DNA from: a bacterium
Lineage (GTDB): Bacteria; Patescibacteriota; Minisyncoccia; Phycocordibacterales; UBA9973
Direction of reading: 5' to 3'
DNA: 64,000 bases
Assembly (NCBI GenBank): GCA_027484965.1
Contig: JAIXRY010000008.1
Location: 1,069-65,068, forward strand
The notes under the pieces were generated by a model that made no database searches, was not told the DNA's origin, and worked only from the letters and a program-made list of their open reading frames with translations. The first letter of the stretch is position 1. Each line of letters opens with the position of its first letter. Below are positions 39,410-56,902 of this stretch, piece after piece. Position numbers and translations under genes: made by a program.

Positions 39410-40318
39410 ATGAATATAGAAAAATACAGACAATATCTTCCTAGTAAAAAATTCCAAAAAATACTTGGAAGTATAGTAATTGTTATTGTGGTAATAATAC
39501 TAATAAGCCTTGTAGGGTCTGGTAAAATACATATTACACAAAAACAAAAAGAACAAGCTGTTATTCAAAAAATGACTTTGAGTGAACTTGTTCAAAAAGA
39601 CACAGACAATGATGGCTCACCTGATTGGGAAGAAGGTCTTTTTGGTACAGATCCAAAACAACCAATTTCTAACAAACAAGGAATTCCTGATGGTGAATAT
39701 ATAAACAATCAAAAAAAGGCACAAGGAGGAGGTGATACTTCTAACTTAACAGAAACAGATAAAGCTGCTCAAGATTTCTTTATTGCCATCGAAGCATTAA
39801 AACAATCAGACAATCTTACTCCAACAGCTTTATATAACATAACTTCAAGCATATCTCAGACAATTCTTTCTGAAAAACTTCCAGAAACATATGCTTTTAG
39901 TGATGTAAAAACCACTGAAAATAATAAACAAAATCAGAAAAAATACATGACTGATTTTAAGAAAATACACAGTGATGCAATCAAAAAAGGACTTGGAAAA
40001 GAATTGGGCGTATTTATGCAAGCACTAGGTGAAGGGAATAGAGACCAGCTAGCGAGTCTTTCGAAATATGCAGATATTTACAAAAACATGTCTGTACAAT
40101 TAAAAAACATCCAGACCCCAGAAGACTTATCAACAAATCATTATTTGCTCATAAACCATTACGAGAGAATTGGAATTTCTCTGAATAATATTTCAGAATC
40201 TTTTGAAAATCCAACAAAAGGAATGATTGGTGTCGCTGGATATAAAAAATGGACTGAAGAATCAAATACAGTATTAAAAGATATTCAAGATTTATTTAAA
40301 CAATATGGTATACTATAA
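39410..40318 (+). CDS. Membrane-anchored secreted protein with a TSP3-like Ca-binding aspartate motif
   Basis: N-terminal helix; DTDNDGSPDWEEGLFGTDP...IPDGEY motif. Confidence 0.4.
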   Translation: MNIEKYRQYLPSKKFQKILGSIVIVIVVIILISLVGSGKIHITQKQKEQAVIQKMTLSELVQKDTDNDGSPDWEEGLFGTDPKQPISNKQGIPDGEYINNQKKAQGGGDTSNLTETDKAAQDFFIAIEALKQSDNLTPTALYNITSSISQTILSEKLPETYAFSDVKTTENNKQNQKKYMTDFKKIHSDAIKKGLGKELGVFMQALGEGNRDQLASLSKYADIYKNMSVQLKNIQTPEDLSTNHYLLINHYERIGISLNNISESFENPTKGMIGVAGYKKWTEESNTVLKDIQDLFKQYGIL

Positions 40319-42557
40319 AAACATTATGAGAGTATTCAAACTCCATTCAATCATAGGCTCAATTCTTATCTTTGCTTTTATAATAAGTCCTTTTGGATTA
40401 ATTGCTCAAGCTTTTAATTTAGAAAATTTAAATACAACAGATCTTACAAAAAGTGATTTGTTTGCAAACGATTTCGCTGGAGGAGGATATGCAATGCTTG
40501 ACTGTTTTGGAACCTCATCAAACATTCTTGATTCTATTCAAGGTTTTTTTGGTTCTGACGGTGGTCAAGATAAAGTAGCAGTTGATGACAAAACACAAAA
40601 TCTAAAAGAACAATGTCTTGATGCTGCAGCCCAAGTTAATGCCCAAAAAACAGTCGCTTCAATGTCTAAAAGTATTTTCAATTGGACTCAAACAGGTAAT
40701 GGAGGAAACCCTCTTTATGTAAAAGATTTTGGAAAATATCTAAGCAGTATTGAAACACAAGAAGTGGGTGTTCTAAAGAATAAATTCACTACTGAAATAT
40801 TAAATAACCCTGAGAAACTTCCTTTTGCAAAAGATGTAGTGAAGACAATGCAACAAGCAGACAAATCAAAAGATGATATTGTTGGAAACTTAACATATAC
40901 AGGACCAGACAAAAAGGCATTTTCAAACAGTTTTAAAGGTGGAGGTGGGTGGAGTTCTTGGCTTAAAGCAACACAAAATCCAGCAAACAACCCTATTGGA
41001 TTCAATCTAAAAGTTGGAGATGAACTCAAAAAGAAACAAGAAGAAGCTAAAGATAATATAAAAGAAGAGCTTAAACAAACAAGCTTCTTGCCTGTTCGTG
41101 AATGTGTAGATTCAAACTATAAATCAGACGGAACACCATTAACGGATGAGGATAGAAAAGCTGGAAAAACAGACATCTGTTCAAAATGGGATATAAAAAC
41201 ACCAGGCAGCCTCGTAAAAGACCAAGCGTCAGAAGCATCAAATTCTGCTTTAAATCTTGCACTAAATGCAGATCAGAAAGGTAAGCAGCTTAATGTTATG
41301 TTTGCATCTCTTCTTACTCAGCTCTTCAATCAAGGTTTTGCAACTCTCGGAAATAGGGCAAATCAAGTAATGAGCAATGTTCAGATATCTAGCAAAGTAC
41401 CTACATATGGAGATAATAGTGGATATAGCACAGAAGATGATGGGACAGGTGATTGGTTTGATTCTGTATGGGTTGGAGGAATAAGACCTCAAGATATTTC
41501 TATAATAATAAAAAATCAAAAAGATATTGCTAACAAGCTTCCAGAAAGAGTTTTAATTCTTCAATCAATAATAAACAAAACAAAAGAACTTGATTATTGT
41601 GTTCCAGGCCCAAATCCAATGTGGACTAAAGACCTTGGTGATTTTATAGGTATAAAAATGGAAGAAAATGGTAAAAAGGTAGAACCAGGTTTTGGAGAAA
41701 AATTCCTAAATATGGTCGCAAGTAACGGGAGTATAACAGGCGGGTTTGGTAGTACTGGGCTTATAGGGCTAATAGTAGGACTTCTTATGGAGGTTCGTGC
41801 ATTTAATTATTATTCCAGAGAAGAATTAAATGCTATATATCTAAAAAATACAATAACAGACACTAATAAATATTATGAATTTATTCAAAAGACTTACAAT
41901 AACCCTGCTTCATACCAAAAAATAAATTCAACGACTTACAACAACGATGAAGCAGTGCTAGATAATTTAGAGAAACTGTTTGAAATAAAAACAGACAGCG
42001 ACAGACAATATCTAAATATAAACTCATATCAAACACAAATAGAAAAGAATACAAGATATCTTTCTCTTACAAAAAAACAAATGGCGAGAATGCAGGATAT
42101 TTGTGTTCAAACACACAAGCTTTATGTACAAGCATACAACAGACAAATGCGCGAAAGAAATTCTTGGGAATCTTGGAATAAAAAAGGTCCAACAAAAGAA
42201 ATAATTGGTTACAGAAAAAAGAAATTAGTGAATGGTAAATATGAAGTAGATCCAAACAGTAAGCTATACTCTCCAGAAGAAGCGAGACTTAGTGTGACCG
42301 TGTTTAAAGCAGAACTTCCAAAAAAAGAAACTGAGCTGCTATTTGCATCAAATATTACTGAGCAATTCGACCAAAATGCATTTAATACTCTATATATTCC
42401 AGTAGAAGAGACAATCCCTGAACCAAAAAAAGTTCCTCCTCTGCCTCCATTTTCAGAATATGCACTTAACTGTTCTGGAAATATAGGTAACTTTAGTGAC
42501 CCTTCAACTATAACTGTACAGACATCTAACAATAACAATATTAAAAATACTGAATAA
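40305..42557 (+). CDS. Large membrane-anchored secreted orphan protein (750 aa)
   Basis: N-terminal helix (alternative start MRVFKLHSII at 40326); start overlaps the upstream gene by 14 nt, consistent with an operon. Confidence 0.4.
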   Translation: MVYYKNIMRVFKLHSIIGSILIFAFIISPFGLIAQAFNLENLNTTDLTKSDLFANDFAGGGYAMLDCFGTSSNILDSIQGFFGSDGGQDKVAVDDKTQNLKEQCLDAAAQVNAQKTVASMSKSIFNWTQTGNGGNPLYVKDFGKYLSSIETQEVGVLKNKFTTEILNNPEKLPFAKDVVKTMQQADKSKDDIVGNLTYTGPDKKAFSNSFKGGGGWSSWLKATQNPANNPIGFNLKVGDELKKKQEEAKDNIKEELKQTSFLPVRECVDSNYKSDGTPLTDEDRKAGKTDICSKWDIKTPGSLVKDQASEASNSALNLALNADQKGKQLNVMFASLLTQLFNQGFATLGNRANQVMSNVQISSKVPTYGDNSGYSTEDDGTGDWFDSVWVGGIRPQDISIIIKNQKDIANKLPERVLILQSIINKTKELDYCVPGPNPMWTKDLGDFIGIKMEENGKKVEPGFGEKFLNMVASNGSITGGFGSTGLIGLIVGLLMEVRAFNYYSREELNAIYLKNTITDTNKYYEFIQKTYNNPASYQKINSTTYNNDEAVLDNLEKLFEIKTDSDRQYLNINSYQTQIEKNTRYLSLTKKQMARMQDICVQTHKLYVQAYNRQMRERNSWESWNKKGPTKEIIGYRKKKLVNGKYEVDPNSKLYSPEEARLSVTVFKAELPKKETELLFASNITEQFDQNAFNTLYIPVEETIPEPKKVPPLPPFSEYALNCSGNIGNFSDPSTITVQTSNNNNIKNTE

Positions 42558-42561
42558 ATAT

Positions 42562-44664
42562 ATGTATAACGATCGTCGTAAAAAAATAATAAGAATTTCA
42601 TTAATTGTTCTAGGTATAATTATAATTGTTCTTATTTATTTATTTATAAAAAGCAAACAACAAACAGAAACAACGGGAAATAAAGGAAACTTTTTTCTAG
42701 ATCTTGGAAGTCTTATTACAGGTAAAAGACAAAACCCTAACGGTGTCTCTCTAACTCCAAATGGGAATGGCCTAGGTGGTAGCAATGGAAGTGGTAATGG
42801 GAACGGTAGCAATAATGGAAGTGGTAATGGGAACGGTAGCGGATCACCACTTGTTTTGGGGGGTCTACCAGAACCGACACCTATAGCTCAAAATATTGGT
42901 GGAGGTTTCGGAACAAACAACAGAGACTTATTCCCTGATAATCAAAATCCTAATAACTGTATTGGATGTAGTGGTTCTTTTGGTATAGGAAACGGCGACT
43001 TAGGAAGTGGAGGAGGTTCAGGAAACAGTGGTTTAGGTGGTGATGGATTGGGCGATGATGGTTTAGGTGGTGATGGATTGGGCGATGATGGTTTAGGTGG
43101 TGATGGATTGGGCGATGTGTCTAGTTATGTATATATAAATGCTGTCCCAAGTGCTATACACAAAGACGATGAAGTTACTGTTACTTGGGAATCTTCTAAT
43201 GTGAATACTTGTTTTGCAAGTTCATTCCCTGTAGTACCAGGATGGAATGGCTCAACAGGTAAATCAGGGACTAAATATTTTTCTCTAAATAAACCTACGA
43301 CTTTTATCATTAAATGTTCAACAACAAGTGGTACAGTTCAGGCTTCTGACTCTGTTTCAGTACTCGCAGATGATGTACCTTTGTGTAAAGAGGACAATAC
43401 TTGTTTTCTAGGAGATAGTGAAACAGGCAAGTATGTATCTGCCGTTATGGAAGCAAGTCCATACATTGTCGAGTCTGGTGATACGAGTTTGCTTGCATGG
43501 GACACAGAGAACGCTACCATGTGTAATGCAAACAGTGTTCCTCTGCGAGATGACTGGAGAGGATTAATACCTCAGAGTTCAGGAGAAACAGATATTACAC
43601 TTCCAAGTACACCTGTTACATATATACTTACATGTACAGACGGGAAGACTACAGGTCAAACAGATGTAACAATTTCAATAGACACATCAAAAATAGATGA
43701 CGGACGAGACTTTGGTGACGATCCTATAGATCTGTGTAGCAGGTCAGAACAAGAAAGAAATCCTCTTTGTTTAGTAAGAGATATTTCTATAGATGAAGAA
43801 GAGAAGATCCTCATTCTAACAAACGAAGAACAAGCCATTCTTGACTCTCTCATGAAAGAAGTTGCTATTATGTCTCCAACACTTCCTTCAAACCAAACGT
43901 CTTCTAGTCTTGATATTTCAACACAGACGTACAGAGCAATATTGAGCGACATAGAAAAAAATGTTAGTACTTGTTATGACCTCACACAAAATACATCAAA
44001 AAATCAAGATTTTATCGATGCTCTTTGGGAAAGGCAGATAGTAGGGAGAAGACCTTTACCATTTCTAGGGAACAGAAATCCAATATTTGAAATACCAATA
44101 AATCCTGGAGCAACAACATACATATATAAAAGCAAGGATGGTAGCACCACAGAAATAAAAATACCTAAAAACTTACAAATAGCAAGTGGAGGTAGTAAAG
44201 GTAGTTTTAAAATACCCATAATACCAGAAACAAGTACATATACATATACAGACCCAGTAAGAGGAGATAAGACAATAATACAAATACCAAAAGAACTACA
44301 AAATCCTATTCTTCAAAACATATCAATATATTTACAAAATCTATATCCAGTTAAGCCACCTTCTGCAAAATTACTCAAAAAATATTATGATTTTGCACGT
44401 TCACCTGGAAATACTTGGAGAGCTACAGAACTAGGAGAAGGAGAGAGAGATTGTCCAGGGCGCCGCATTACAACAACATACAAAAACGACATCCAAGGCA
44501 CTTTCATTTTCCCTTGGCTTGGAGATGGTTGTTGGTATATGAACTCATATAAGACAAATGAAGATGATGCACAAAAAGGTATATATGATCTTGTTCCAGG
44601 ATACGGACGTATGCAAGAGCAAGTAGAGTATGGATCAGACACAAAAGGAATAAAAATATTCTAA
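42562..44664 (+). CDS. Large secreted protein with low-complexity GN/GS and GDGLGD tandem-repeat linker and two Ig-like Cys-containing domains
   Basis: N-terminal helix. Tandem 27/30-bp DNA repeats (42781-42840, 43031-43117). Domains VTVTWESSNVNTCFASS...FIIKCSTTSG and LLAWDTENATMCNANS...YILTCTDGKT match the repeat family in the 4925-7024 protein. Confidence 0.5.
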   Translation: MYNDRRKKIIRISLIVLGIIIIVLIYLFIKSKQQTETTGNKGNFFLDLGSLITGKRQNPNGVSLTPNGNGLGGSNGSGNGNGSNNGSGNGNGSGSPLVLGGLPEPTPIAQNIGGGFGTNNRDLFPDNQNPNNCIGCSGSFGIGNGDLGSGGGSGNSGLGGDGLGDDGLGGDGLGDDGLGGDGLGDVSSYVYINAVPSAIHKDDEVTVTWESSNVNTCFASSFPVVPGWNGSTGKSGTKYFSLNKPTTFIIKCSTTSGTVQASDSVSVLADDVPLCKEDNTCFLGDSETGKYVSAVMEASPYIVESGDTSLLAWDTENATMCNANSVPLRDDWRGLIPQSSGETDITLPSTPVTYILTCTDGKTTGQTDVTISIDTSKIDDGRDFGDDPIDLCSRSEQERNPLCLVRDISIDEEEKILILTNEEQAILDSLMKEVAIMSPTLPSNQTSSSLDISTQTYRAILSDIEKNVSTCYDLTQNTSKNQDFIDALWERQIVGRRPLPFLGNRNPIFEIPINPGATTYIYKSKDGSTTEIKIPKNLQIASGGSKGSFKIPIIPETSTYTYTDPVRGDKTIIQIPKELQNPILQNISIYLQNLYPVKPPSAKLLKKYYDFARSPGNTWRATELGEGERDCPGRRITTTYKNDIQGTFIFPWLGDGCWYMNSYKTNEDDAQKGIYDLVPGYGRMQEQVEYGSDTKGIKIF
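43031..43117. repeat. Tandem 30-bp repeat (ggtttaggtggtgatggattgggcgatgat, ~2.9 copies) encoding GDGLGDDGLG
   Basis: Direct inspection. A second 27-bp tandem pair at 42781-42840 encodes NGSGNGNGS. Confidence 0.85.
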
Positions 44665-44700
44665 AACTAAAAGAAGTCCCGAAGGACTTCTTTTAGTTTT
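44665..44700 (+). terminator. Intrinsic terminator
   Basis: aaaagaagtcccgaaggacttcttttag. Confidence 0.7.
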
Positions 44701-44782
44701 AGAAACTATTATTTATACACAGATATATTATCTTACTATATATATTTATTTTTAAAAGAGGGTGGTATACTTATAGTATTAC

Positions 44783-47716
44783 ATGAAGCGAATTTTCTCT
44801 ACGCTCATTATAGGAGTTATTCTTATAGCAAATCTATTTGCGCCTTTTGAATATTCTCTAAAAGAAAAGTCTTTCAAAAAATCTCAGGCTCAAGCAGCTT
44901 TTGATGGGAGTGTGAGTGGTTACAAAAATGCATTTAAAAATAGTATATTAGAAGTTAACAACACCACACTAACAGCAAATGGCACCGTTGCATTGGTAGA
45001 CTTTAAAATAAAACTAGATACAGGGCTTCCTACAGGTAGCACACGACAACAAGTAAATGAAATTTTTGCTCACGTTTCTTCAAAAGGTTCTTACTGGATA
45101 ATTGGTGATACTGGAACAAACATTTTTAATGACAATTCATTTGTTTTGGTTATAAAAGACAAGGCGACGGGGATTGGCGGTTATAAAGATATAACATATA
45201 ATTTGTTGCTGGTTAATGAAAACAATGTAACAACAAATTATATTGACAAAAAGGATAACATGCCAATATCATTAATTAATGATGTCTCTATTCCAAGCAC
45301 ATTAACTGGAGATTTATCATATTTAAAACCATCAACAACTTACATAGCCACTCTTTATTATAGAGCAGATAGTCATATAGGTTCTGGCGATGGTGCAGGG
45401 AACGGCGAATCTATTTTAGATATATTAAAAAACAAAGATTTTTATCCAGTAGGAAATCCTATTGAATTTACAACTACAGACCGAATTGGTGGTGGAGGAG
45501 ATCTTGGTTCAGGACAAGGATACACAGATCAAGCAGTAAACGATGATTTACCTGCTTGTAGTTTAGGATTTTTACCTGGAGTTGAAGGTGATATTCTTGG
45601 TTGTGGTGTACAAATACTATTTTACCTAGTATATACTCCTGTCTCTTGGGGAATGGCTGCGGCGGGAATGTTCATGGACTTCTCTCTAGATTATTCTCTA
45701 GACTCTGCTTCTTATAGTGGGGAGAGTACTGGATTTGTTAGTAAAGCTTGGGGATTCATACGCGATCTTTGCAATATTTTCTTCATTGTATCAATGCTTT
45801 ATATTGCACTTGGTGTAATATTCGAATTCAAAGGAGCTGGAGACTGGAAGAAATCTGTCGCAAATCTTGTTATTGCAGCACTTGCCATAAACTTCTCACT
45901 TTTCATAACAAAAATACCTATAGACCTTGGAAATATTGCAGCTAGAGTATTTTACAATTCTGATTTAATTAAAATTACGAAAGTAGGAGATGACGGAGAA
46001 ACAACAGGCTCACTTTCTGAAGCTGTTGTTGAAGGATTTCAACCTCAAAGGATATATTATGATGGTTTAAAAAATGTAAACAATGTTAAAGGAGAAAATG
46101 CGTCTGAGGGGACAGGCGTAGGGACTTATACTATTATTATTATTTTTGCAACAATAATAAACTGGATAGCGCTTTGGATATTTTTCAAGATAGGCCTATT
46201 ATTCCTCGGACGTGTTGTTTCGCTTTGGTATCATATGATTCTTTCACCTCTTGCATTTGTCTCTGATTATCTCCCAGACGCTATTAAAAGTAGTGTAGGT
46301 GGTTTTAATTTTAGTAGTTGGATGAAAGAAATAGTGAGACTTTCTGTAATGCCTGTAATATTCATGGCTCTCATGTATCTATTACTATTATTCATAAGCG
46401 TCGGAACATCAACAATCAGTAAAGGGGGTAATGCATTCGCTTGGATTATCGGGACAGTAGCACCTTTCGTATTTGTTATTATAATGCTCAAAAAAGCACA
46501 AACAACAACAGAAGGATTTGCTGATGATATAGCTAGAAAAACAACTGATTATGCAGGGAAAGCTATAGGTACAGTGGCAGGACTTGCGGCAGGAGGGGTA
46601 GGATTTGCTGGAAGAAGAGTACTTGGAAGCAAATTAGCTAATCTTGCGAATAGTTCATCTCTAAAAGATACAGCTGCTAAGGGTGGTATTGGAGGTGCGA
46701 TGGCTCGTATGACACTCAAAGGTGCTGACTACGGCTCTAAAGCGTCTTTTGATCTTAGAGGTACAGACGCATTCAAAAAAGCAGGGTTTGATGATTCATA
46801 TTCAAAAGGTGCTACAGCCAAGATGTTTGGAATGGACTTGAAAGATGGTGGATATGTAGGTGCAGAGAAGCGCCGCAAAGAAATGCATGAAAAACGTATG
46901 AAGCAATTCGCTGCAAATGACGATGAATACAAAGCACTGAAAGCAAGAGAAGAAAAGCGTTTTGGTGAAAAATTCGATAAAGAAAAATTTGAAAATAAAT
47001 ATGGCAAGAACGCCAACGAACTAAACATAAACAGACAAACAGCTTATGCTGAAAGTCTTAAAAACAAAGGAAAATCAATAGGAGAAGCCGTAGGAAAAGT
47101 AATGGGAGAATCAATAGGAGAAGCCGTAGGAAAAGCTGTAGGAAAAGCAAGCAATGCAGCTGGAGCTATTGCGGGAAACAATACTATAGATGAGAAATTT
47201 GCTGATAAAGTATTAAAAGATGGTAAAGAGAAAAAGAAAAAATTTGAAAAAATAAAAGACGAACAGAAAAGTATTGAGAATCAAATTGCCATTGTTGAAG
47301 ATGAAATCAGCGAAATAAACACATTCTTCGAAAAAATGACAAGCGATGAAGATTTTAAAGCTATAAGAAAAGATATTAAAGATAAGCCAGAAAATAAAGG
47401 GCTTTCAGATGCAAGTATTGATAAAAAAGCTTCTCAAGAATATGAGGCGAAAATTAAAAAAGAACTTAGAGAATTGGAAGCAAAAAGGGAGGCTTGGCGT
47501 ACAGGTGACAGTGATGGAGATTTTGAAGAAGAAGCTAAACTTGAGTTATTACGAAAAGAAAGTAGTAAGTTTGAGTCATATTCAAAAAAGAACCTAGAAA
47601 CTTTGGAAGCAAAAAGGGATAAATTAGAAAAAAGATCAACAACTCTTTCAGGAAATTCCGATAAAATTAGTGGAAAAGACAAGAAAGATGAAGAAAAGAA
47701 AGACGATAAAAAATAA
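44783..47716 (+). CDS. VirB6/TrbL-like polytopic membrane protein with a long K/E-rich coiled-coil C-terminal tail (putative T4SS channel component)
   Basis: Signal/anchor helix, ~270-aa extracytoplasmic domain, then at least five hydrophobic helices (e.g. IFFIVSMLYIALGVIF, IIIFATIINWIALWIFFKIGLLFLG, VMPVIFMALMYLLLLFISVG, FAWIIGTVAPFVFVIIML). C-terminal repeats GEAVGKVMGESIGEAVGKAVGKA, then a charged coiled coil. Confidence 0.45.
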   Translation: MKRIFSTLIIGVILIANLFAPFEYSLKEKSFKKSQAQAAFDGSVSGYKNAFKNSILEVNNTTLTANGTVALVDFKIKLDTGLPTGSTRQQVNEIFAHVSSKGSYWIIGDTGTNIFNDNSFVLVIKDKATGIGGYKDITYNLLLVNENNVTTNYIDKKDNMPISLINDVSIPSTLTGDLSYLKPSTTYIATLYYRADSHIGSGDGAGNGESILDILKNKDFYPVGNPIEFTTTDRIGGGGDLGSGQGYTDQAVNDDLPACSLGFLPGVEGDILGCGVQILFYLVYTPVSWGMAAAGMFMDFSLDYSLDSASYSGESTGFVSKAWGFIRDLCNIFFIVSMLYIALGVIFEFKGAGDWKKSVANLVIAALAINFSLFITKIPIDLGNIAARVFYNSDLIKITKVGDDGETTGSLSEAVVEGFQPQRIYYDGLKNVNNVKGENASEGTGVGTYTIIIIFATIINWIALWIFFKIGLLFLGRVVSLWYHMILSPLAFVSDYLPDAIKSSVGGFNFSSWMKEIVRLSVMPVIFMALMYLLLLFISVGTSTISKGGNAFAWIIGTVAPFVFVIIMLKKAQTTTEGFADDIARKTTDYAGKAIGTVAGLAAGGVGFAGRRVLGSKLANLANSSSLKDTAAKGGIGGAMARMTLKGADYGSKASFDLRGTDAFKKAGFDDSYSKGATAKMFGMDLKDGGYVGAEKRRKEMHEKRMKQFAANDDEYKALKAREEKRFGEKFDKEKFENKYGKNANELNINRQTAYAESLKNKGKSIGEAVGKVMGESIGEAVGKAVGKASNAAGAIAGNNTIDEKFADKVLKDGKEKKKKFEKIKDEQKSIENQIAIVEDEISEINTFFEKMTSDEDFKAIRKDIKDKPENKGLSDASIDKKASQEYEAKIKKELRELEAKREAWRTGDSDGDFEEEAKLELLRKESSKFESYSKKNLETLEAKRDKLEKRSTTLSGNSDKISGKDKKDEEKKDDKK

Positions 47717-48436: not shown

Positions 48437-48487
48437 AAATACAAGAGCGGGACCCGAAGGGTCCCGCTCTTGTATTTATTTTTTAGT
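48437..48487. terminator. Bidirectional intrinsic terminator
   Basis: aaaatacaagagcgggacccgaagggtcccgctcttgtattt. The core gcgggacccgaagggtcccgc is identical to the terminator at 11384. Confidence 0.75.
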
Positions 48488-48510: not shown

Positions 48511-48927
48511 TTATTTTCCTTGGTTGTTCATATCAAGCACATCAAGACTCCATGCCAAATCTTTTAATTTACTACCTGACAGCTTTGGTTGAGAAGAAAC
48601 AATATTTGTATTTTTGACTTCAACAGTCTTAACCTCTTTTACTTCTTTCTTGGTTTTTTGCCAGATATAAAGCTTACTTTGAAATAAATAACTTATATAA
48701 GCTCTGAGTATATATTCAAAAGGTTTTTCATTTACTTTATAAAATACAAGAAGGAGTGAGAGTATAACTATAAAAATAGCAAAAGGAACCCCAATAATAA
48801 TAGGGAGCAGTCTTAGAGAGACGTAAGTCATCCCAGCGCCACCCACAAGATAGACAAATTCTTTAAACGTAAAAGGACCAAATATTTTGTCTTCTATATC
48901 AATAAATTGAGGTACTTTGAATTGCAT
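48511..48927 (-). CDS. PrgI/VirB3-like small two-helix membrane protein
   Basis: N-terminus MQFKVPQFIDIEDKIFGPFTFKEFVYLVGGAGMTYV resembles the PrgI-family pattern (VP.d...edKi.G.lt.rQ..yl..g), followed by two hydrophobic helices. Confidence 0.45.
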   Translation of the reverse strand: MQFKVPQFIDIEDKIFGPFTFKEFVYLVGGAGMTYVSLRLLPIIIGVPFAIFIVILSLLLVFYKVNEKPFEYILRAYISYLFQSKLYIWQKTKKEVKEVKTVEVKNTNIVSSQPKLSGSKLKDLAWSLDVLDMNNQGK

Positions 48928-49092
48928 ATAATATAGTATATAGCGAATAACCGACAGTGGAAAGGGAATATTATATTTAGTCGCACTTGCTCACATTTTA
49001 AAAGACACAATACAATATAATTCTGATAAATTAAACATTAAGGCGCGACAAGATTTCGAAAAACCGTATATTCACTAGTTAGTAACAACTAG

Positions 49093-49740
49093 TTGCTATA
49101 TAATGTATTTATGGCACCAAGTGCAAAACCTACACAATCGTTTGTTCCTGTCGAAGAAGTTCGTGATGGAATCATGATACTTCGCTCTGGAGAAATAAGA
49201 GCGATTGTTATGGCTTCTTCAATAAACCTTTCTCTAAAATCAGCAGATGAGCAACAGGCAACAATAATGGAATTCCAATCATTCTTAAACTCTCTCGATT
49301 TTACAACTCAAATCGTAGTTCAGTCACGCAGGCTTGATATTAGGCCTTATCTTTTACAATTAGAAAAAAGATACGAAGCACAGACAGAGCAACTCTTAAA
49401 AATTCAAACGAAAGAATACATAGAATTTATAAGAAAATTTACAGAAGATAGATCTATAATGACAAAGACATTCTTCGTTGTTGTTCCTTATAGTCCAGCA
49501 CCAATAGATGGTGTTTCTGGTGGAATGTTTTCTTTTTTTGGAGGAAGCAAAAAAACAAAAGAAAGCGATCTTCTAGCTTTTGAAGAAAAGAGAACGCAAC
49601 TTGAGCAAAGAATTTCTACAATTACTCAAGGGCTTTCTCGTTTTGGTGTACGTACAGTTGTTCTTGGAACAGAAGAGGTGATCGAGGTTCTTTATAAAGT
49701 CTTTAATCCTGGTGAAACACACCAATCAATAGAAGTATAA
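49093..49740 (+). CDS. VirB4/TrbE-like ATPase, N-terminal segment (separate reading frame from the following ORF)
   Basis: IMILRSGEIRAIVMASSINLSLKSADEQQATIMEFQSFLNSL resembles Gram-positive VirB4 N-terminal domains. Ends at TAA 49738-49740, one nucleotide before the next ATG. Confidence 0.5.
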   Translation: MLYNVFMAPSAKPTQSFVPVEEVRDGIMILRSGEIRAIVMASSINLSLKSADEQQATIMEFQSFLNSLDFTTQIVVQSRRLDIRPYLLQLEKRYEAQTEQLLKIQTKEYIEFIRKFTEDRSIMTKTFFVVVPYSPAPIDGVSGGMFSFFGGSKKTKESDLLAFEEKRTQLEQRISTITQGLSRFGVRTVVLGTEEVIEVLYKVFNPGETHQSIEV

Positions 49741-49741
49741 T

Positions 49742-51751
49742 ATGGGATTATTCGATTTTTTAACAAAAAGCAATAATGGAAACCAAAAAGCAACAGTATT
49801 GCCTGTTTTACCTACGGACATATACGAGCAAGCTTCTCTTGAATTCCAAGATATAGTTGCACCTTCAGCTCTTGAAGTTACACCAAAATCAATCCACTTA
49901 GGTGATAAGATAGCGCGAACATTCTTTGTTATTTCATATCCAAGATATTTAAACGATAATTGGTTTTCTCCAATCATAAACTTGGACAAAATTTTTGATA
50001 TTTCAATTTTTATACACCCAATTGATACTTCAGAAATATTAAAAAAATTCCAAAAGAAAGTAGCTGAGGTTCAAAGTCAGATATCTACACGCGAAGAAAA
50101 AGGACTTGTTCGTGATCCGATGCTCGATACTGCATATAGAGACCTAGAAGGACTTCGTGACGACCTAATGCAAGCACAGCAAAAGATGTTTGAAGTTGGT
50201 ATTTATATCACAATCTACGCAGACAACGAAAACGAGCTCTTCAAAGTAGAGAATGAAATAAAATCAATATTGGAAGCAAGAATGGTATACATGAAACCAG
50301 CTTTGTTCCAACAAGAAGATGCTTTCAAAAGTGTTTCTCCAATAGGGACAGATATCATAGAAGTTCACCAAAAACTAAATTCAGAACCACTGTCTTCAAT
50401 TTTTCCTTTCGTTTCTTTTGACCTAACGTCAGAAAAGGGGATACTGTACGGAGTAAATCGCCACAACGCATCACTTGTTATCTTTGACCGCTTCTCTCTA
50501 GAAAACTACAATTCAGTAACAATTGCTACATCTGGAGCAGGTAAGTCATTCACCACAAAACTTGAAATTCTTCGAACATTAATGTTCGACACAGAAGTGA
50601 TTGTTATTGACCCTGAGCGTGAGTATGAATACCTTGCAGAAGCTGTAGGTGGAAGATATTTCAATATTTCACTATCATCTGATCACCACATCAATCCATT
50701 TGATTTGCCTATACCAAGAGAAGATGAAACAACAGCAGATGTGCTTCGTTCAAATGTTATCTCACTTGTTGGTCTATTTCGTCTAATGCTTGGGGGACTT
50801 ACCCCAGAAGAAGATTCTATTGTTGACCGTGCAATCACTGAAACGTATGCATTGAAAGATATTACAATTGATAGTGATCTTTCGAAAGTAGAACCACCAC
50901 TATTGTCTGACTTTGAAATGGTTCTATCGGGAATGGAAGGTTCAGAATCAGTGCTTCAAAGAATTAAAAAATATACTCGTGGATCATGGAGCACCTTTAT
51001 CAATCAGCCATCAAACGTTGATATTAACAAGAAGCTGGTTGTGTTCTCTATTCGCGACATGGAAGATGAGCTCAAGCCTGTAGCAATGTATATTGTTACT
51101 CACTTTATATGGAATGCTATTCGTCGTGAACTTAGAAAAAGACTGCTCGTAGTAGATGAGGCGTGGATTATGATGAAATCAGAAGACACAGCTTCGTTCT
51201 TATACAGTATTGCAAAACGCGGAAGAAAATATTATCTAGGACTATCTACTATTACACAAAACGTTGATGACTTTATGAAGAGTCAATATGGAGTCGCTAT
51301 TATTACCAATGCATCAATCCAACTTCTTCTAAAACAATCTTCAAGTTCTATAGAACTTGTTCAAAAAACTTTTCACCTCACAGAAGAAGAGAAGTACCTA
51401 CTTCTAGAATCTGGAGTAGGGGAAGGAATATTCTTCGCAGGTCTAAAGCATGTAGCAATTAAAGTTCTTGCGTCATATACAGAAGAACAGATTATTACTT
51501 CAGACCCTTCTCAATTACTTAGAATTGCTCAATCAAAAAGAGAATTGCTTGCAGAAAAACAAGAAGATACAGAAAAAAAACAAAAAGAGATTGAACAAGC
51601 TATTATAGAAGAAAAAGTATCAGTCCCTGAAATAAAAGAAGAAATTATTATAGAGGAAACACATGAACCAATAAGTGTTATAGAATCAGAAAAATCTGTA
51701 ACAGACGAAGTAAGCGCTCTTGAAAAAGAGTTTGAAGACCTTATAAAATAA
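49742..51751 (+). CDS. VirB4/TrbE/CagE-like T4SS ATPase, C-terminal segment
   Basis: DKIARTFFVISYPRYL conserved block; Walker A IATSGAGKSFTT; Walker B LLVVDEAW; acidic C-terminal tail. Confidence 0.8.
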   Translation: MGLFDFLTKSNNGNQKATVLPVLPTDIYEQASLEFQDIVAPSALEVTPKSIHLGDKIARTFFVISYPRYLNDNWFSPIINLDKIFDISIFIHPIDTSEILKKFQKKVAEVQSQISTREEKGLVRDPMLDTAYRDLEGLRDDLMQAQQKMFEVGIYITIYADNENELFKVENEIKSILEARMVYMKPALFQQEDAFKSVSPIGTDIIEVHQKLNSEPLSSIFPFVSFDLTSEKGILYGVNRHNASLVIFDRFSLENYNSVTIATSGAGKSFTTKLEILRTLMFDTEVIVIDPEREYEYLAEAVGGRYFNISLSSDHHINPFDLPIPREDETTADVLRSNVISLVGLFRLMLGGLTPEEDSIVDRAITETYALKDITIDSDLSKVEPPLLSDFEMVLSGMEGSESVLQRIKKYTRGSWSTFINQPSNVDINKKLVVFSIRDMEDELKPVAMYIVTHFIWNAIRRELRKRLLVVDEAWIMMKSEDTASFLYSIAKRGRKYYLGLSTITQNVDDFMKSQYGVAIITNASIQLLLKQSSSSIELVQKTFHLTEEEKYLLLESGVGEGIFFAGLKHVAIKVLASYTEEQIITSDPSQLLRIAQSKRELLAEKQEDTEKKQKEIEQAIIEEKVSVPEIKEEIIIEETHEPISVIESEKSVTDEVSALEKEFEDLIK

Positions 51752-51766
51752 GATATACTAAAAAAT

Positions 51767-52174
51767 ATGGCAGACACACCAACACCTCAAAATGACAGCG
51801 ATGTTAATGTATCAGCTCTAGAAGAAGAACTCAATAAAACAATTAGTTCAGATTCTGAAGCTTTTTCAACACCTCAAAAATCTCAAGAAGAACCTAAAAC
51901 CTTAAAAGATAAGGTTGTAAAACTTCAAAATATGGAGAATGTTATAGAAACAAGATCTCACCAACTTGAATCTGAAATAAAAACAAAACTAACAACTTTA
52001 AAAAGTTTAAAACAATCAATAGAACTTGGACTTCAAAAGATTAAAAATTTCGGAAGTGAAAAAACAAAAATACAACAAGAAATACAAAAAATACAAAAAT
52101 TAGAAAGCGATCAACTCGAAATAGAAACAGAAATAAAGAGTATTGAGGATCACACAAAAGAAATGGGAATATAA
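51767..52174 (+). CDS. Coiled-coil orphan protein (135 aa)
   Basis: Heptad-rich Q/E/K sequence. Confidence 0.35.
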   Translation: MADTPTPQNDSDVNVSALEEELNKTISSDSEAFSTPQKSQEEPKTLKDKVVKLQNMENVIETRSHQLESEIKTKLTTLKSLKQSIELGLQKIKNFGSEKTKIQQEIQKIQKLESDQLEIETEIKSIEDHTKEMGI

Positions 52175-52176
52175 AT

Positions 52177-52238
52177 AAAGCACAGATTAAAAGCAGAACT
52201 CTTCGGGTTCTGCTTTTAATCTGTGCTTTATGCTTTTT
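52177..52238 (+). terminator. Long palindromic intrinsic terminator
   Basis: aaagcacagattaaaagcagaactcttcgggttctgcttttaatctgtgcttt. Confidence 0.7.
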
Positions 52239-52275
52239 ACTTGTTGCTTAATGTTATTCACTATATAATATATAT

Positions 52276-53265
52276 ATGAAACATATTTCTCAATGTTTTT
52301 TCTCTATTTGTTGCTTATTTTTTATAATCGCTTTTTCATTTTTAATCCCAACAAAAACTTTTGCACAATCAGAAGAAGCTATTAGTGTCAAAGTAAGTCC
52401 AGAGAATCCGAGAGAAAATCAAACAGTTACAATATCAACATCAAGCGTTAGTGCCGATCTTGATAGTTCTGATTTTGTATGGAAAATAAATAACGTAACT
52501 CAAAAAAGTGGTAAAGGAATAAAAAGTTTTTCTTTTAAGACTGGAAACATAGGAAGTACAACAGTTATTGGTCTAAGCATAACGTCTTTAGGGTCTCAGA
52601 ATACATTTCAAAGATACATTACCATCAAAGTAAGTAGTGTTGATTTATTGTTTGAGGCAGTAGACAATTACGTGCCTCCTTTTTATAGAGGAAAGAAAAT
52701 GCCAGCACCAGAATCTCTTGTAAGAGTAACCGCAATTCCAAACGCTCAAGGTCTTGGAAAAACTATCAATGGAAAAGATTTTATATATACATGGAAAAGA
52801 AATGGTCAGGTAATACCAGCCGTCTCTGGTTTTGGAAAACAAACATATTCTTTTAATATGGATTACTTGAATAATGAAGAGGTTATTGAAGTAAACGCAA
52901 GAAGTTCTAATGGAACATATAGTAGTACAGGATCCACAACAATAAAAAATGTAAAACCTGTATTGAATTTTTATCAAAAAATTCAAGGTCAAATTGATAT
53001 CAATAAGATTATAAAAAGCGGAGACACTATAAAAAACCCATCAACAATATCTGCTGTACCTTATTTCATTACAACAAAGACAAAAACAGACAAAAACTTA
53101 AGCTACACATGGAAAATAAACGGTGATGAAATTGCAAGTGATAACAACAAAAATGAAGTAACTATCGGAGCAAAAAAAGGAGGTGGGTCTTCGATTGAAT
53201 TATCTATTGAACACGCAACAAAGTTTTTTCAAGACATTACTAAGAGTTTAAAAATTACTATTTAG
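52276..53265 (+). CDS. Secreted protein with three Ig-like beta repeats (YTWKING-type)
   Basis: Signal peptide; repeats FVWKINNVTQKSGKG..., FIYTWKRNGQVIP..., LSYTWKINGDEIA... Confidence 0.4.
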   Translation: MKHISQCFFSICCLFFIIAFSFLIPTKTFAQSEEAISVKVSPENPRENQTVTISTSSVSADLDSSDFVWKINNVTQKSGKGIKSFSFKTGNIGSTTVIGLSITSLGSQNTFQRYITIKVSSVDLLFEAVDNYVPPFYRGKKMPAPESLVRVTAIPNAQGLGKTINGKDFIYTWKRNGQVIPAVSGFGKQTYSFNMDYLNNEEVIEVNARSSNGTYSSTGSTTIKNVKPVLNFYQKIQGQIDINKIIKSGDTIKNPSTISAVPYFITTKTKTDKNLSYTWKINGDEIASDNNKNEVTIGAKKGGGSSIELSIEHATKFFQDITKSLKITI

Positions 53266-53281
53266 TGATATACTATTAGTA

Positions 53282-55606
53282 ATGAAAAAATCATATATCT
53301 ATATTATTTTTTGTCTTATTCTTGTTTTTTTGCCTTTTTATAACCCACAAAAAGCATTCGCAAGAGAAGTACCTACAATAAGAATCTCGACAGACAAAAC
53401 ATACCCTGTGCGAGTTATGGACGGAACAAAGCCAACAAACGACTTTAGTGTGTATGGTTTTATAACAAAAACAGAACCAGCAGATCAAGTAGCTGTGTGG
53501 CTTACCCAAACAGGTAAAGGAACTGATTTTAAAATATGGCCACAAGTAGCAAAAATAAACAAAGACACTTCTGGTAAAGCATATTCTTTCAATGTAACAT
53601 TTAAAGATCTTGAGACTGGTAGGTATGCAGTGCACAGTACTATCGATTATGTAGAACCGGAATACAAAAACCAGAGCGGGGCAACTGTGGCAGCAAAAAA
53701 TAAAAAAACTCTTGAAGTTCTTAATACTAAAAATCCTACAAATTACACGACAAAAGTTTTTGACGTTACCGCTGTTCCAATAATTAGAGGCGGGGAAATA
53801 AAAGTAAAACACCTAGGCAATGACAATTTTAGAGTTACTACAACCATAGACACTTATGATTCAACTAAAAACTATAGTATTTATCTAAAAGAAAAAGAAA
53901 AGGGTACTGAAATAAAAAATACTTCTATTGCACGTGAAAACAGCGATAAAACTACAAGTCAAAATTTATTTGCTGAATTTTATAATATTTCAGGGAGTTT
54001 TACTGCTCATGTTGTTTACAAAGAAGGTTTAGAAACTATTGGTATGGCTCAATTCAGCTTCTCAACAGGGGAGGTGATAGACAAAGGAGAGATTGTGGGG
54101 AATAAAAAAACAATAGACAATGGAAACGTTATAGACCCAAAAATAAATGATGTTACCGTTGATGTTTCAGAAAATGGTAATACTTTTGTATTAGGTATAA
54201 CAGGTGCTGATATTCCAGAAAATTCACTGTATGAAGTAGTTATTCTTGATAAGTCAGCAAAAAATACAAGCAATCCTACATACATCGCTCCAAGTACTGG
54301 AGGTATAAAAGCAACAAACGTCGGAGGTTTTTTGGATATGAAAGTTACTTATACTTTTAATCAAATACCAAAATCTGGCTCTTACTATGTTATTACAAAG
54401 ATAAAGAAACCGGACACAGCAAAAACAGAACTAGCCAGAAGAGATTCAGAGATTATTTTAAATAAAGAAGATAAAACAGCCAATGTTCAAAGCGCTAATA
54501 TATATGAAGTACCAAACACAACCATCCCAAGTACAGGAGAATACAAACTTCTAGTCCCTCTTCCTGGAATAGGAGATACATTCGATTATTCAGCCCCAGG
54601 AGCATTCCAAAACTTAATAAACACTATAATTAAACTAATTTTTGGAGCTATTACTGTATGGGCTGTTCTCACCACCATTCGCTGGGGTATCGTATATATG
54701 GTATCGGACAAAGAATTTACAAAAAGTGAATCTAAAACAAAAATACTCAACGCTATTATTGCTATAGTATTAGCACTTTCTTCTTATTTAATTTTAAATA
54801 CCGTTAATCCAGATTTGGTTAATATATCTATAAATGGACAACAAGCAAATATAAGCGTAAGAGAAATAGAATTTATTAGTCAAAAAAAATTTGAAGAGAG
54901 TACCGGTGAAAAACGATTATCAAAAGAACGATATCAAGCTGAAGCTAAAAAAGTTACGGCTCAGATGGGTATACCTTATTGTGCTCTTCAAGTAATATTA
55001 GAGAGAGAATCTAAAGGTGATCCAGGAGCTATAGGGTTTGACGAAAACACAACCAGAAATGGTTCGAGTATTCCTTCACGTGTGTCTTTTATTAATTCTG
55101 GTAAAAGATACAATGGGTCGTCATTTACACCAAGTAACACTCTAATAACAGATAAAAGTATAACAAATCAAAAAATTAGTGAAGTAAAAACCAATGTTCC
55201 AGGACTTGGTCTTGATTGGAGATTCAGTAAAGGTATAGGTCTTACTCAAATAACACTTTTTCCTGAAGGTTACTTTAGTGGGACAGTTAGTTTTAGTAAA
55301 AACCCATTAAGTTTTGACAAAAGAGATACATATCCTACAAGAACTATTCAGTACACAAAAGACGGCAAAACCATAAAAGAAACACTTACCCCTAAAGACT
55401 TATTAAAAACAGAGAAAAATCTTCTTGCAGGAGCAAGTGTCTGGAAAGATTCTTGGCTTAAATGTAACAAAGATCCTTATGGTGCATGGGTTGGGTATGG
55501 ATCCGGACCTGGAAACTGTATCCCAAAAAATAATTTTATAAGAGAAGAAGCAAAGATAAGAATGGAGTACTATAACGGCTGTATAAAACAATTTGGCTCA
55601 CAATAA
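53282..55606 (+). CDS. Secreted multidomain protein with a central membrane hairpin and a C-terminal lysozyme-like/SLT-type lytic transglycosylase domain (VirB1-like role inferred)
   Basis: Signal peptide. Hairpin KLIFGAITVWAVLTTIRWGIVYM...ILNAIIAIVLALSSYLIL. C-terminal YCALQVILERESKGDPGAIGF...GIGLTQITLFPEGYF resembles the SLT E-S and GLMQI motifs. Confidence 0.45.
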   Translation: MKKSYIYIIFCLILVFLPFYNPQKAFAREVPTIRISTDKTYPVRVMDGTKPTNDFSVYGFITKTEPADQVAVWLTQTGKGTDFKIWPQVAKINKDTSGKAYSFNVTFKDLETGRYAVHSTIDYVEPEYKNQSGATVAAKNKKTLEVLNTKNPTNYTTKVFDVTAVPIIRGGEIKVKHLGNDNFRVTTTIDTYDSTKNYSIYLKEKEKGTEIKNTSIARENSDKTTSQNLFAEFYNISGSFTAHVVYKEGLETIGMAQFSFSTGEVIDKGEIVGNKKTIDNGNVIDPKINDVTVDVSENGNTFVLGITGADIPENSLYEVVILDKSAKNTSNPTYIAPSTGGIKATNVGGFLDMKVTYTFNQIPKSGSYYVITKIKKPDTAKTELARRDSEIILNKEDKTANVQSANIYEVPNTTIPSTGEYKLLVPLPGIGDTFDYSAPGAFQNLINTIIKLIFGAITVWAVLTTIRWGIVYMVSDKEFTKSESKTKILNAIIAIVLALSSYLILNTVNPDLVNISINGQQANISVREIEFISQKKFEESTGEKRLSKERYQAEAKKVTAQMGIPYCALQVILERESKGDPGAIGFDENTTRNGSSIPSRVSFINSGKRYNGSSFTPSNTLITDKSITNQKISEVKTNVPGLGLDWRFSKGIGLTQITLFPEGYFSGTVSFSKNPLSFDKRDTYPTRTIQYTKDGKTIKETLTPKDLLKTEKNLLAGASVWKDSWLKCNKDPYGAWVGYGSGPGNCIPKNNFIREEAKIRMEYYNGCIKQFGSQ

Positions 55607-55630
55607 TATAAACATGTTATAATTTATACA

Positions 55631-56902
55631 ATGTCTAACAGAAAATTCATTATTATTTTTTCTCTTGTTGGTATATTCCTTATTGGAAGTCTTGTGTATG
55701 TTGGAATAGATCTTTTTGGCAACAAAACACAAAAAACAACAAAACAAACAACAACAGCAAAGAAAAACACTTTTAGCTTTCTTGATTTCGGCAAAAAAAC
55801 AAACACAACAGTGATTGAACAGCCAGAAGCAACTGACACCATAGAAGTAACTCAACCAGAAACAACAACAAAAAAGCTTATTCGCTTAAGTTCAAGAAGA
55901 GTTTCTTCTTACGGTTTTTTTGAAAAAGAAAGTGGTGTACCTGGAACACAGACAACAATAAGTGGTCAAAATAGTATTTTTATAAAATCAACAGGTGTAA
56001 ACTTTACAGACAAAGAAACAGGACTGATATATCAACTTATAGATGAAGCCACGGAAAATTCAAGACTATCAAACAATACAACACCGCTTTTGGGTAAGTC
56101 ATTGATAGGAAACAATGGTGATAGTGTTGTTTATCAATACACAGAAAAAGATAGTGAGACTATAGATACATATGTAGGCAAACTCGACGGAGGGATAGCG
56201 CCTTTTAATGTTAGAGGATTTTTCCTTCCTAAAAATATTATAGATGTAACCCTATCACCAAAGAAAGACCAGTTTTTCTCAATTATTCCGACACCAAATG
56301 GTGTTATAGGACTAACTCAAAACTTTGTAACAAACAGAAAGACTCAACCTTGGAGTAGTGTTTTCTCTGAGTGGGTCGCAGATTGGTCAAACGACAGAGT
56401 AATAACAATAACCACAAAAGCTTCAGGTGATAGTGATGGATATAGTTATTTTCTAAATCTTAGCGATAGTAGATTTACAAAAGTAATAGGACCAGAAAAA
56501 GGCCTCATTACAAAAACATCTCCTGATACAAAAAATATTCTTTATTCGAAAACAGAAAACGGTCAACCTAAACTATATTTATTCAACACTAGTTCAAAAA
56601 CATCAAAGTCTTTAGATTTCTCAACTCTTGCTGATAAATGTACATGGGCCGATAATTCAATAATATACTGTGCTGTACCAAATATTATAGAGAGTGGTGT
56701 ATATCCTGACACATGGTACAGAGGGGAAGTATCATTTCAAGACTCTTTCTGGAAGATAGATATAAATCAAGACTCTATCTCAAACGTGGCTACATTATCA
56801 GACATAGACAACATAGACGCTGAACAGTTATCTTACAATAATGGAGAGTTATACTTCATAAATAAAAACACAGAAAATCTTTGGAAATATATATTACAGT
56901 AA
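55631..56902 (+). CDS. Membrane-anchored secreted orphan protein (423 aa), possibly beta-propeller-like
   Basis: N-terminal helix; T/Q-rich linker; beta-rich C-region. Confidence 0.35.
   Translation: MSNRKFIIIFSLVGIFLIGSLVYVGIDLFGNKTQKTTKQTTTAKKNTFSFLDFGKKTNTTVIEQPEATDTIEVTQPETTTKKLIRLSSRRVSSYGFFEKESGVPGTQTTISGQNSIFIKSTGVNFTDKETGLIYQLIDEATENSRLSNNTTPLLGKSLIGNNGDSVVYQYTEKDSETIDTYVGKLDGGIAPFNVRGFFLPKNIIDVTLSPKKDQFFSIIPTPNGVIGLTQNFVTNRKTQPWSSVFSEWVADWSNDRVITITTKASGDSDGYSYFLNLSDSRFTKVIGPEKGLITKTSPDTKNILYSKTENGQPKLYLFNTSSKTSKSLDFSTLADKCTWADNSIIYCAVPNIIESGVYPDTWYRGEVSFQDSFWKIDINQDSISNVATLSDIDNIDAEQLSYNNGELYFINKNTENLWKYILQ

Follow-up and report, generated by a model that had tools for sequence, protein, structure and literature searches.

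A vertically inherited type IV secretion system of the Patescibacteria clade very probably resides beside the replication origin of a Nomurabacteria-like Paceibacterium

The subject of this analysis is a gene cluster on the contig JAIXRY010000008.1 (assembly GCA_027484965.1), of which a stretch of 64 kb, called the window in the following, was studied. The cluster is located at positions 39410-56902 of the window. An initial annotation had described it as a chromosomal machine of about 18 kb that resembles a type IV secretion system (T4SS) of the Gram-positive (PrgI-VirB4-VirB6) type. The cluster is real, all 12 of its 12 open reading frames (ORFs) are present, and they are tightly packed, 11 on the plus strand and prgI alone on the minus strand. 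The assignment to a Gram-positive-type T4SS agrees both with the profile matches of PrgI and VirB4 and with the published description of such systems. Taken together, the results argue strongly that the cluster encodes a vertically inherited, chromosomal T4SS of the Patescibacteria clade, which was derived from monoderm (MPF-FATA) conjugation machinery. The source bacterium is a Nomurabacteria-like Paceibacterium, and the cluster occupies the usual slot between ksgA and the genes yidC-rnpA-rpmH-dnaA.

The conservation of the cluster was analyzed with a set of 84 related loci (L001-L084). A scan with one genome per GTDB species yielded 80 loci, all from metagenome-assembled genomes (MAGs) of the Nomurabacteria/Paceibacteria type, and look-ups added the complete 808-kb genome CP064958.1. 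The gene order was shared by about 80 species loci and by the complete genome. It starts after uvrD and ksgA with the genes for a 302-aa protein, a 750-aa protein and a VirB6-like protein, continues with an acidic ORF, prgI, trsD, virB4, and the genes for a 329-aa protein, a hairpin protein and a 423-aa protein, and is followed by yidC, rnpA, dnaA and dnaN. A comparison of synteny had been proposed as a check together with the initial annotation, and it revealed a fixed slot among housekeeping genes across about 80 species. The distance between dnaA and virB4 was 5-8 kb in 58 of the 63 loci with enough flanking sequence. The conserved core comprises the VirB6-like protein, PrgI/VirB3, TrsD, VirB4, the protein that combines a VirB2-like hairpin with a wall hydrolase, as well as four further envelope proteins that are conserved; the conservation of this core is very strong. 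The median identities to the proteins of the window were 78% for VirB4, 63% for DnaA, 54% for DnaN, 52% for KsgA and 46% for YidC. The conservation of VirB4 above that of DnaA in the same genomes indicates an unusually strong constraint for a secretion ATPase.

The gene virB4 (49742-51751, plus strand) encodes an ATPase of the CD1110/MPF-FATA type. The protein reached 384 bits with the NCBIfam model conju_CD1110 (cutoff 325) and also matched P-loop_TraG (E 1.7e-25), AAA_10 and DUF87. The Walker A motif (GAGKS, aa 265) and the Walker B motif (VVDEAW, aa 470) are intact, and a Glu-rich extension of about 60 aa at the C-terminus is specific to the lineage of the window. With proteins of about 610 aa from MAGs of Nomurabacteria/Paceibacteria, VirB4 shares an identity of about 78-80%, and the best 120 database matches were all proteins of this group (72-100% identity). 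The closest plasmid-encoded VirB4 proteins stem from Firmicutes and Actinobacteria and were merely 29-34% identical.

The initial annotation had regarded VirB4 as split. Instead, virB4 is preceded by a separate gene for a TrsD-like protein (49111-49740, plus strand), a free-standing homologue of the N-terminal domain of VirB4. The protein matched the TrsD/TraD family model NF041427 with an E-value of 3.3e-10, which is below the curated cutoff of that model, and it also matched positions 2-118 of conju_CD1110 and positions 102-233 of VirB4_plasma; its homologues carry the TraC-like domain PF26593. The mechanically called ORF starts with TTG at 49093, but the in-frame ATG at 49111 is the likelier start. 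The stop of trsD and the start of virB4 are joined as TAA-T-ATG, and separate trsD and virB4 genes were found in 84 of 84 related loci, with a median identity of 60% for TrsD. A frameshift or pseudogene as the cause of the two ORFs was ruled out by the TrsD match, the junction and this invariable two-gene layout.

The small protein PrgI/VirB3 is encoded on the opposite strand (48511-48927, minus strand), as had been annotated, and has two hydrophobic segments, as expected for a protein with two transmembrane (TM) helices. In a Pfam profile search it scored 37.1 bits with PF12666 (gathering score 27), and, thus, both PrgI and VirB4 exceeded curated thresholds in the profile searches that had been named as a check. 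The gene prgI was found in 81 of the 84 loci and is mostly situated on the plus strand directly 5' of trsD. A minus-strand location was seen only in the window and in L001, L002, L010 and L012, in contrast to a co-directional location in the other approximately 77 loci. The inversion resembles a small lineage-specific event and is bounded by the perfect hairpin at 48437-48477.

Another gene of the cluster (44783-47716, plus strand) encodes a polytopic protein of 977 aa, which is VirB6-like by fold and is viewed as an extended channel protein. It begins with a signal or anchor segment and an extracellular domain of about 240 aa, contains at least five TM helices between about aa 270 and 620, and ends in the cytoplasm with a tail of about 350 aa that is charged and coiled. 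The best fold matches of its AlphaFold model were TrwI/VirB6 and DotA, and a homologue, P0162, came to just under the gathering score of TrbL (25.0 versus 25.9). The label VirB6/TrbL of the initial annotation is not supported by a direct profile match; its support comes from fold and transitivity, and the protein is a putative VirB6-like protein. In comparison with the solved T4SS channel subunits TrwI/VirB6 of R388 and DotA of Legionella, the identity is just 10-17%, and the protein of the window is extended by its large extracellular N-terminal domain and its cytoplasmic tail.

Only 3 nt downstream begins the gene for an acidic cytoplasmic protein of 227 aa without a TM segment (47719-48402, plus strand). 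BLAST detected this protein in just 10 of the 84 loci. An ORF with a median length of 269 aa and 18% acidic residues was present in the same slot in 71 of 74 loci; the position is conserved, but the sequence evolves fast.

The most unusual part of the cluster is a tripartite protein of 774 aa (53282-55606, plus strand). Its N-terminal part consists of a signal peptide and a variable, beta-rich domain of about 400 aa; next come a pilin hairpin of the VirB2-like type at aa 442-507 (nt 54605-54802) and, at the C-terminus, a lytic transglycosylase domain (aa approximately 560-774, nt 54959-55603). The hairpin matched T4SS_pilin (PF18895) with 26.6 bits, which is exactly the gathering score, and NF045849 was matched with an E-value of 4e-4. 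It is formed by two TM segments joined by a Lys-rich loop, and therefore an extracytoplasmic location is predicted for both large domains. A search of the 64 kb with the hidden Markov model of the hairpin found one ORF, that of the 774-aa protein, and no small pilin; the pilin domain of the window is embedded in a large protein.

The Pfam SLT match of the 774-aa protein itself was merely at an E-value of 0.014. The motifs ES (in ILERES, aa 572), GLTQ (aa 653) and GYGSG (aa 738) correspond to the ES, GLxQ and AYxxG-like motifs of family 1 lytic transglycosylases (SLT, VirB1-like), and E576, S577, G653, L654 and Q656 show little or no variation in the family of 16 sequences. In addition, homologues with 32-35% identity bear PF01464. 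An AlphaFold2 model was of moderate quality (pLDDT 66), and its top folds MltC, LtgA and SltB3 were not significant (E about 1); the assignment as SLT was thus made because of the motifs and the homologues, not because of the model fold. The initial annotation had recognized the SLT-like hydrolase with its membrane hairpin, and the hydrolase motifs are indeed conserved, but it had missed that the hairpin is a VirB2-like pilin domain.

Relatives at this position always consist of a variable immunoglobulin (Ig)-like N-terminal domain, the conserved VirB2-like hairpin and a C-terminal domain. T4SS_pilin was matched by 62 of 67 family members and TrbC/VirB2 by 15. The C-terminal domains of the 67 members included VanY (12), NlpC/P60 (9), SLT types (8), Amidase_5 (6), YkuD (4), M15_4 (2) and 3D (1). 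In 76 of 80 hairpin proteins the C-terminal domain had a length of 100 aa or more, and these domains fell into at least 16 clusters without BLAST similarity to one another. The median identity of VirB4 was 80.7% for pairs of loci with the same hydrolase class and 80.8% for pairs with different classes, and even pairs with about 95% identical VirB4 can differ in the class. The hydrolase is thus swapped independently of the relatedness of VirB4. Two paralogues of the hairpin-hydrolase protein were observed in five loci. The fusion of a pilin hairpin to swappable hydrolases is not mentioned in the text of PMC12102498, and no mention of such a fusion was found in the passages of PMC10633639 and PMC12857230 that were searched.

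The other conserved cluster genes encode envelope proteins. The first is a 302-aa protein (39410-40318, plus strand) with an N-terminal anchor, i.e., a single hydrophobic segment at aa 18-36, and a TSP3-like calcium-binding motif, DTDNDGSPDWEEGLFGTDP (aa 64-82). The motif is kept in a family of 31 members, with D64 and W73 invariant. BLAST detected this protein in 38 of the 84 loci, always right after ksgA, and no relative was found in Pfam, NCBIfam or the PDB. The second gene (40305-42557, plus strand) encodes an envelope protein of 750 aa with hydrophobic segments at the N-terminus and at aa 477-495. It has a conserved core at about aa 100-450 with the invariant residues Cys267 and Cys292, and it occurs in 49 of the 84 loci at an unchanged position; its family of 39 members has no relatives in Pfam or the PDB. 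Directly 3' of virB4, in 80 of the 84 loci, a gene for a secreted protein of 329 aa is found (52276-53265, plus strand), with a signal-like segment at aa 7-25 and three internal repeats of about 105 aa. These repeats may be Ig/PKD-like; the W..NG motifs at W69, W173 and W279 are invariant across the family, and the PKD matches were below threshold. No relative was detected among the PDB sequences. The last gene of the cluster (55631-56902, plus strand) encodes a membrane-anchored, extracytoplasmic protein of 423 aa (anchor at aa 6-24). It was present in 73 of the 84 loci, and several of its Cys, Trp and Pro residues do not vary within the family. A TolB-propeller match with an E-value of just 0.007, far under the cutoff, gives a weak hint of a beta-propeller, and again no sequence relative was found in the PDB. 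This family is large, with 2,926 representatives at 50% identity (E at most 1e-3); among the 150 matches listed, all had a length of 294-556 aa, mostly about 400-550 aa.

The PDB sequences were searched with profiles of 31-56 relatives each for the 302-, 329-, 423- and 750-aa proteins and for the core of the VirB6-like protein, and none of these profiles gave a significant match. The profiles of the 750-aa and the VirB6-like protein had no significant match in Pfam either, and an NCBIfam scan of ten further ORFs gave no match.

Two cluster ORFs, of 700 aa and 135 aa, are lineage-specific additions, because each was found in just 3 of the 84 loci. Both are present in the window, as had been annotated, but they are not part of the common cluster. 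The larger one (42562-44664, plus strand) encodes an anchored protein with a Gly/Asn-rich region and two Cys-containing Ig-like repeats. It contains GGDGLGDD tandem repeats, with five in-register 15-nt DNA repeats at 43029-43118, and these repeats may be a length-variable surface region. The smaller one (51767-52174, plus strand) encodes a cytoplasmic coiled-coil protein with weak similarity to SMC coiled coils.

The genomic context of the cluster agrees with its predicted location near oriC. The 5' neighbors are ksgA and a gene for a UvrD/PcrA helicase, and the 3' neighbors are yidC (56951-57679, minus strand), yidD, rnpA, rpmH (58241-58375, minus strand), dnaA and dnaN, followed by a gene for a class A penicillin-binding protein. 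Judged by this gene context, the adjacency to oriC, which had been part of the initial annotation, was confirmed. The dnaA ORF as listed begins with a GTG at 58413, which is 6.7 kb past the virB4 stop. This mechanically called ORF (58413-59918, 501 aa) is about 55 aa longer than its relatives (444-449 aa); translation probably begins at the ATG of residue 58 (MEDHKQLW...), and the spacer between rpmH and dnaA would then be about 200 bp. Three near-consensus DnaA boxes are located in the spacer between dnaA and dnaN; over the whole window 23 boxes were seen versus 20.4 expected, which is not above chance, and only the three boxes of this spacer are suggestive.

Perfect inverted repeats were found at three positions within and at the end of the cluster. 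The first (21 nt, 44659-44704), between the genes for the 700-aa and the VirB6-like protein, is a probable terminator or operon boundary; the second (19 nt, 48437-48477), between the convergent 227-aa gene and prgI, is a probable bidirectional terminator; and the third (19 nt, 56909-56948) lies where the 423-aa gene and yidC converge and delimits the cluster at its end. Together, these hairpins suggest four transcription units. A further perfect palindrome of 30 nt with arms 1 nt apart (38902-38962) was seen between ksgA and an ORF on the opposite strand that encodes an anchored protein of 129 aa; it is probably a bidirectional terminator at the upstream edge of the cluster. The 129-aa ORF has no homologues in related loci.

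The results were compared with published systems. A monophyletic clade of Patescibacteria VirB4 proteins nested within MPF-FATA has been described (Quinonero-Coronel et al. 2025, Microb Genom; PMC12102498), and the genes for TrsD, PrgI/VirB3, VirB6 as well as VirB2-like proteins are reported to be associated with it. According to the same study, VirB1-like hydrolases are linked to virB4 mainly in Paceibacteria, nearly no relaxases are found close to virB4 in Patescibacteria, VirB8 is rarely detected outside the class ABY1, and in Paceibacteria and Microgenomatia the T4SS is located near dnaA, dnaN, rnpA, ksgA and rpmH. The window shares with this Paceibacteria-type system the MPF-FATA VirB4, the adjacent TrsD, PrgI/VirB3, putatively a VirB6-like protein, a VirB2-like pilin domain, a VirB1-like hydrolase associated with virB4, the lack of a nearby relaxase and the neighborhood of dnaA, dnaN, rnpA, rpmH and ksgA. 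There is no essential difference; the peculiarities of the window are the inverted prgI, the 700-aa and 135-aa ORFs and the extension of VirB4. The comparison drawn in the initial annotation with an apparatus of episymbiotic bacteria that belong to the candidate phyla radiation (CPR) was therefore apt. The system has already been published in 2023-2025, and the window adds no new kind of system; a 2025 review counts the Patescibacteria systems as a new T4SS subgroup (PMC12857230).

For Southlakia epibionticum, a cultured Saccharibacterium, Wang et al. 2023 (Cell, PMC10633639) reported that transposon sequencing showed the T4SS cluster and the pilins to be essential for epibiotic growth. The system of strain ML1 (SEML1_0006-0019) is likewise encoded on the chromosome, resembles Gram-positive T4SSs and includes pilin-like components, and neither a coupling protein nor a relaxase was recognized in its cluster (PMC10633639, PMC12857230). 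The window contains a single large fusion of hairpin and hydrolase and lacks a small pilin. In contrast, ML1 has an array of six VirB2-like pilins, which are small, divergent and stand-alone, and its peptidase and lysozyme genes are separate (PMC10633639).

Conjugation systems of the MPF-FATA type (CTn2/CD1110, pGO1 with TrsD-TrsE, pCF10 with PrgH-I-J-K, and pIP501) are more distant. VirB4 of the window passes the cutoff of the CD1110 model, and a separate TrsD (pGO1), PrgI, a multidomain wall hydrolase anchored in the membrane and, putatively, a polytopic VirB6-like protein are shared. In contrast to these systems, the locus of the window is fixed at the chromosomal oriC, has no relaxase, coupling ATPase (T4CP), oriT or PrgB-type adhesin within the 64 kb, and contains a VirB2-like hairpin, which is lacking in the conjugation systems; a VirB8-like protein is not recognizable in the window.

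Most likely, the machine serves the epibiotic interaction with a host by moving macromolecules between symbiont and host, rather than conjugation. A mechanism can be proposed from established T4SS biology, which adds to the observed list of parts, their conservation and the lack of nearby genes for DNA processing. PrgI would anchor a VirB4 hexamer at the membrane, and TrsD would supply the detached N-terminal domain of VirB4. The extended VirB6-like protein may form the membrane channel or the base of a stalk. VirB4 would energize the assembly and possibly extract the hairpin protein of VirB2-like type from the membrane, so that it enters a channel or a pilus-like structure, while the C-terminal lytic transglycosylase of the hairpin protein would open the peptidoglycan. 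The anchored and secreted proteins of 302, 750, 329 and 423 aa may build the wall-spanning and contact part, replacing VirB8-type components, which were not detected.

Several points weigh against the interpretation of the cluster as such a T4SS. The 977-aa protein had no sequence match in Pfam, NCBIfam or the PDB, even with a profile of 56 sequences, and the scores of its fold matches were modest (TM-scores 0.40-0.43, E 5e-3). Five of the 12 proteins (302, 750, 227, 329 and 423 aa) have no recognizable relatives, and their roles were assigned solely from position and topology; also, sequence searches found no VirB8-like component among the cluster proteins. The placement of VirB4 in the Patescibacteria clade is deduced from the identity of 75-100% to MAG proteins and from the best-scoring family model. 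The analysis covered 64 kb, and a T4CP or a relaxase could lie elsewhere in the genome; according to PMC12102498, the majority of Patescibacteria genomes contain VirD4-like genes, which as a rule are distant from virB4. Finally, the data on essentiality come from another class, the Saccharimonadia, and not from a Paceibacterium.

The same machine might work as an importer similar to ComB or the archaeal Ced system, so that DNA or RNA of the host would feed a cell that is unable to make nucleotides. Such a role is quite conceivable, although it falls short of being probable. As in uptake systems, neither a relaxase nor a T4CP is encoded in the window, and the gene for ComM is found 9 kb upstream of the cluster. 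The import hypothesis is favored by PMC12102498, and a 2026 preprint describes feeding on host RNA by a cultured relative together with tubular structures at the interface, which are possibly T4SS pili. Against this stands that comEC is dispensable in Southlakia while the T4SS is essential (PMC10633639, PMC12857230), and that, thus, classical transformation is not the essential role. Moreover, import and export are not distinguished by anything in the sequence.

A somewhat doubtful possibility is that the machine is mainly used for attachment and the breaching of walls, with the polymorphic hydrolase acting on the wall of the host, or for the export of effectors. The switching of the C-terminal domains of the hairpin protein among VanY, NlpC/P60, Amidase_5, SLT, YkuD and M15_4 speaks for wall breaching, as does the lack of a tie between hydrolase class and VirB4 relatedness, a pattern typical of proteins with a variable counterpart, and the predicted extracytoplasmic location of both termini. 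However, T4SSs of Gram-positive bacteria usually require a VirB1-like hydrolase that acts on their own wall, and modular combinations of hydrolases are already known from PrgK and TraG (cited in PMC12102498). Remodeling of the own wall accounts for the presence of the hydrolase, though not for its swapping. Protein export is suggested as an option by Wang et al. (PMC10633639), but effector genes were not recognized in the present analysis. A bolder version, in which the 774-aa protein polymerizes or caps the T4SS conduit and displays a host-matched 'drill bit' that cuts the wall of the host and not that of the symbiont, is considered improbable.

It is very improbable that the cluster is an ordinary integrative and conjugative element (ICE), or a remnant of one, near oriC, with the relaxase, the coupling protein and the integrase just outside the cluster or the window. 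The genes for VirB4, PrgI, TrsD and the hydrolase are homologous to conjugation genes of Gram-positive bacteria, a gene for a tyrosine recombinase is present, and the inspected DNA comprises just 64 kb. However, the cluster was judged not to be an ICE because its gene order recurs, in the same slot between ksgA and yidC-rnpA-dnaA, across the genomes of about 80 species including the complete 808-kb genome. The ORF scan of the window covered nearly all ORFs of at least 100 aa, with a few short or overlapping ones omitted, and every ORF of at least 430 aa. No relaxase or T4CP and no member of the VirD4/TcpA-type coupling ATPase family was found among these ORFs, no oriT in the 64 kb, and no att-like repeats flanking the cluster. 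The lack of a coupling protein and a relaxase noted in the initial annotation was thus verified, but the claim holds for these 64 kb only. A single further secretion ATPase, a PilB-type T2SSE protein of 584 aa with an MshEN domain, is encoded 47 kb away. The statement that no integrase is present applies to the cluster itself, but not to the window, which contains one recombinase gene, of the XerC/D type (25772-26701, minus strand), 13 kb upstream of the cluster; genes for NYN, ComM, an M23 peptidase, a 1105-aa ORF, UvrD and KsgA lie in between. In addition, the GC content of the cluster (31-37%) equals that outside without a compositional break, VirB4 is more conserved than DnaA in the same genomes, and relaxases were found near virB4 in just 15 cases (PMC12102498). 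The earlier view that the cluster is unlikely to be a conjugative element is upheld by the lack of relaxase, T4CP and att repeats, by the even composition and by the synteny with housekeeping genes in about 80 species.

That the cluster is a decaying, non-functional T4SS remnant, as VirB4 homology over two ORFs in different frames might suggest, has a negligible probability in view of the conserved TrsD and VirB4 pair in 84 of 84 loci (60% and 78% identity), the intact Walker motifs, the long and tightly packed ORFs and the occurrence of trsD as a gene of its own, which is known for pGO1-type systems and for Patescibacteria (PMC12102498).

Several features of the window lie outside the cluster. 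At 724-7356 (minus strand), the gene for the PilB-type ATPase is followed by co-directional ORFs of 439, 124, 178, 699 and 109 aa. These five ORFs have no convincing family match apart from one weak Gly-rich domain, and the region possibly represents a type IV pilus module that has diverged. The 1105-aa ORF (32191-35508, plus strand) is located between the gene for an M23/LysM peptidase and uvrD and has no TM segment and no match in Pfam or NCBIfam; partial similarity was found in just 8 of the 84 related loci. A gene for a ComM/YifB Mg-chelatase-like, competence-associated protein is found at 29120-30751 (plus strand), about 9 kb upstream of the cluster. Both this gene and the XerC/D recombinase gene sit among housekeeping genes and are not linked to the T4SS. 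UGA is recoded in some CPR lineages; an alternative genetic code was ruled out here, as the ORFs translated with table 11 are long and contiguous throughout the window.

Patescibacteria account for a considerable part of bacterial diversity and grow attached to host cells, and the T4SS is the leading candidate for the conduit through which they acquire what they are unable to make. The window is a clean and complete example of the Paceibacteria-type locus, and the comparative data add a conserved list of parts, including five conserved proteins without known relatives, as well as the higher conservation of VirB4 than of DnaA in the same genomes. The swappable hydrolase on a pilin hairpin is a variable and possibly host-facing module and is the one lead worth following; if the reading as a 'drill bit' were true, the hairpin-hydrolase protein would be a determinant of the host range.

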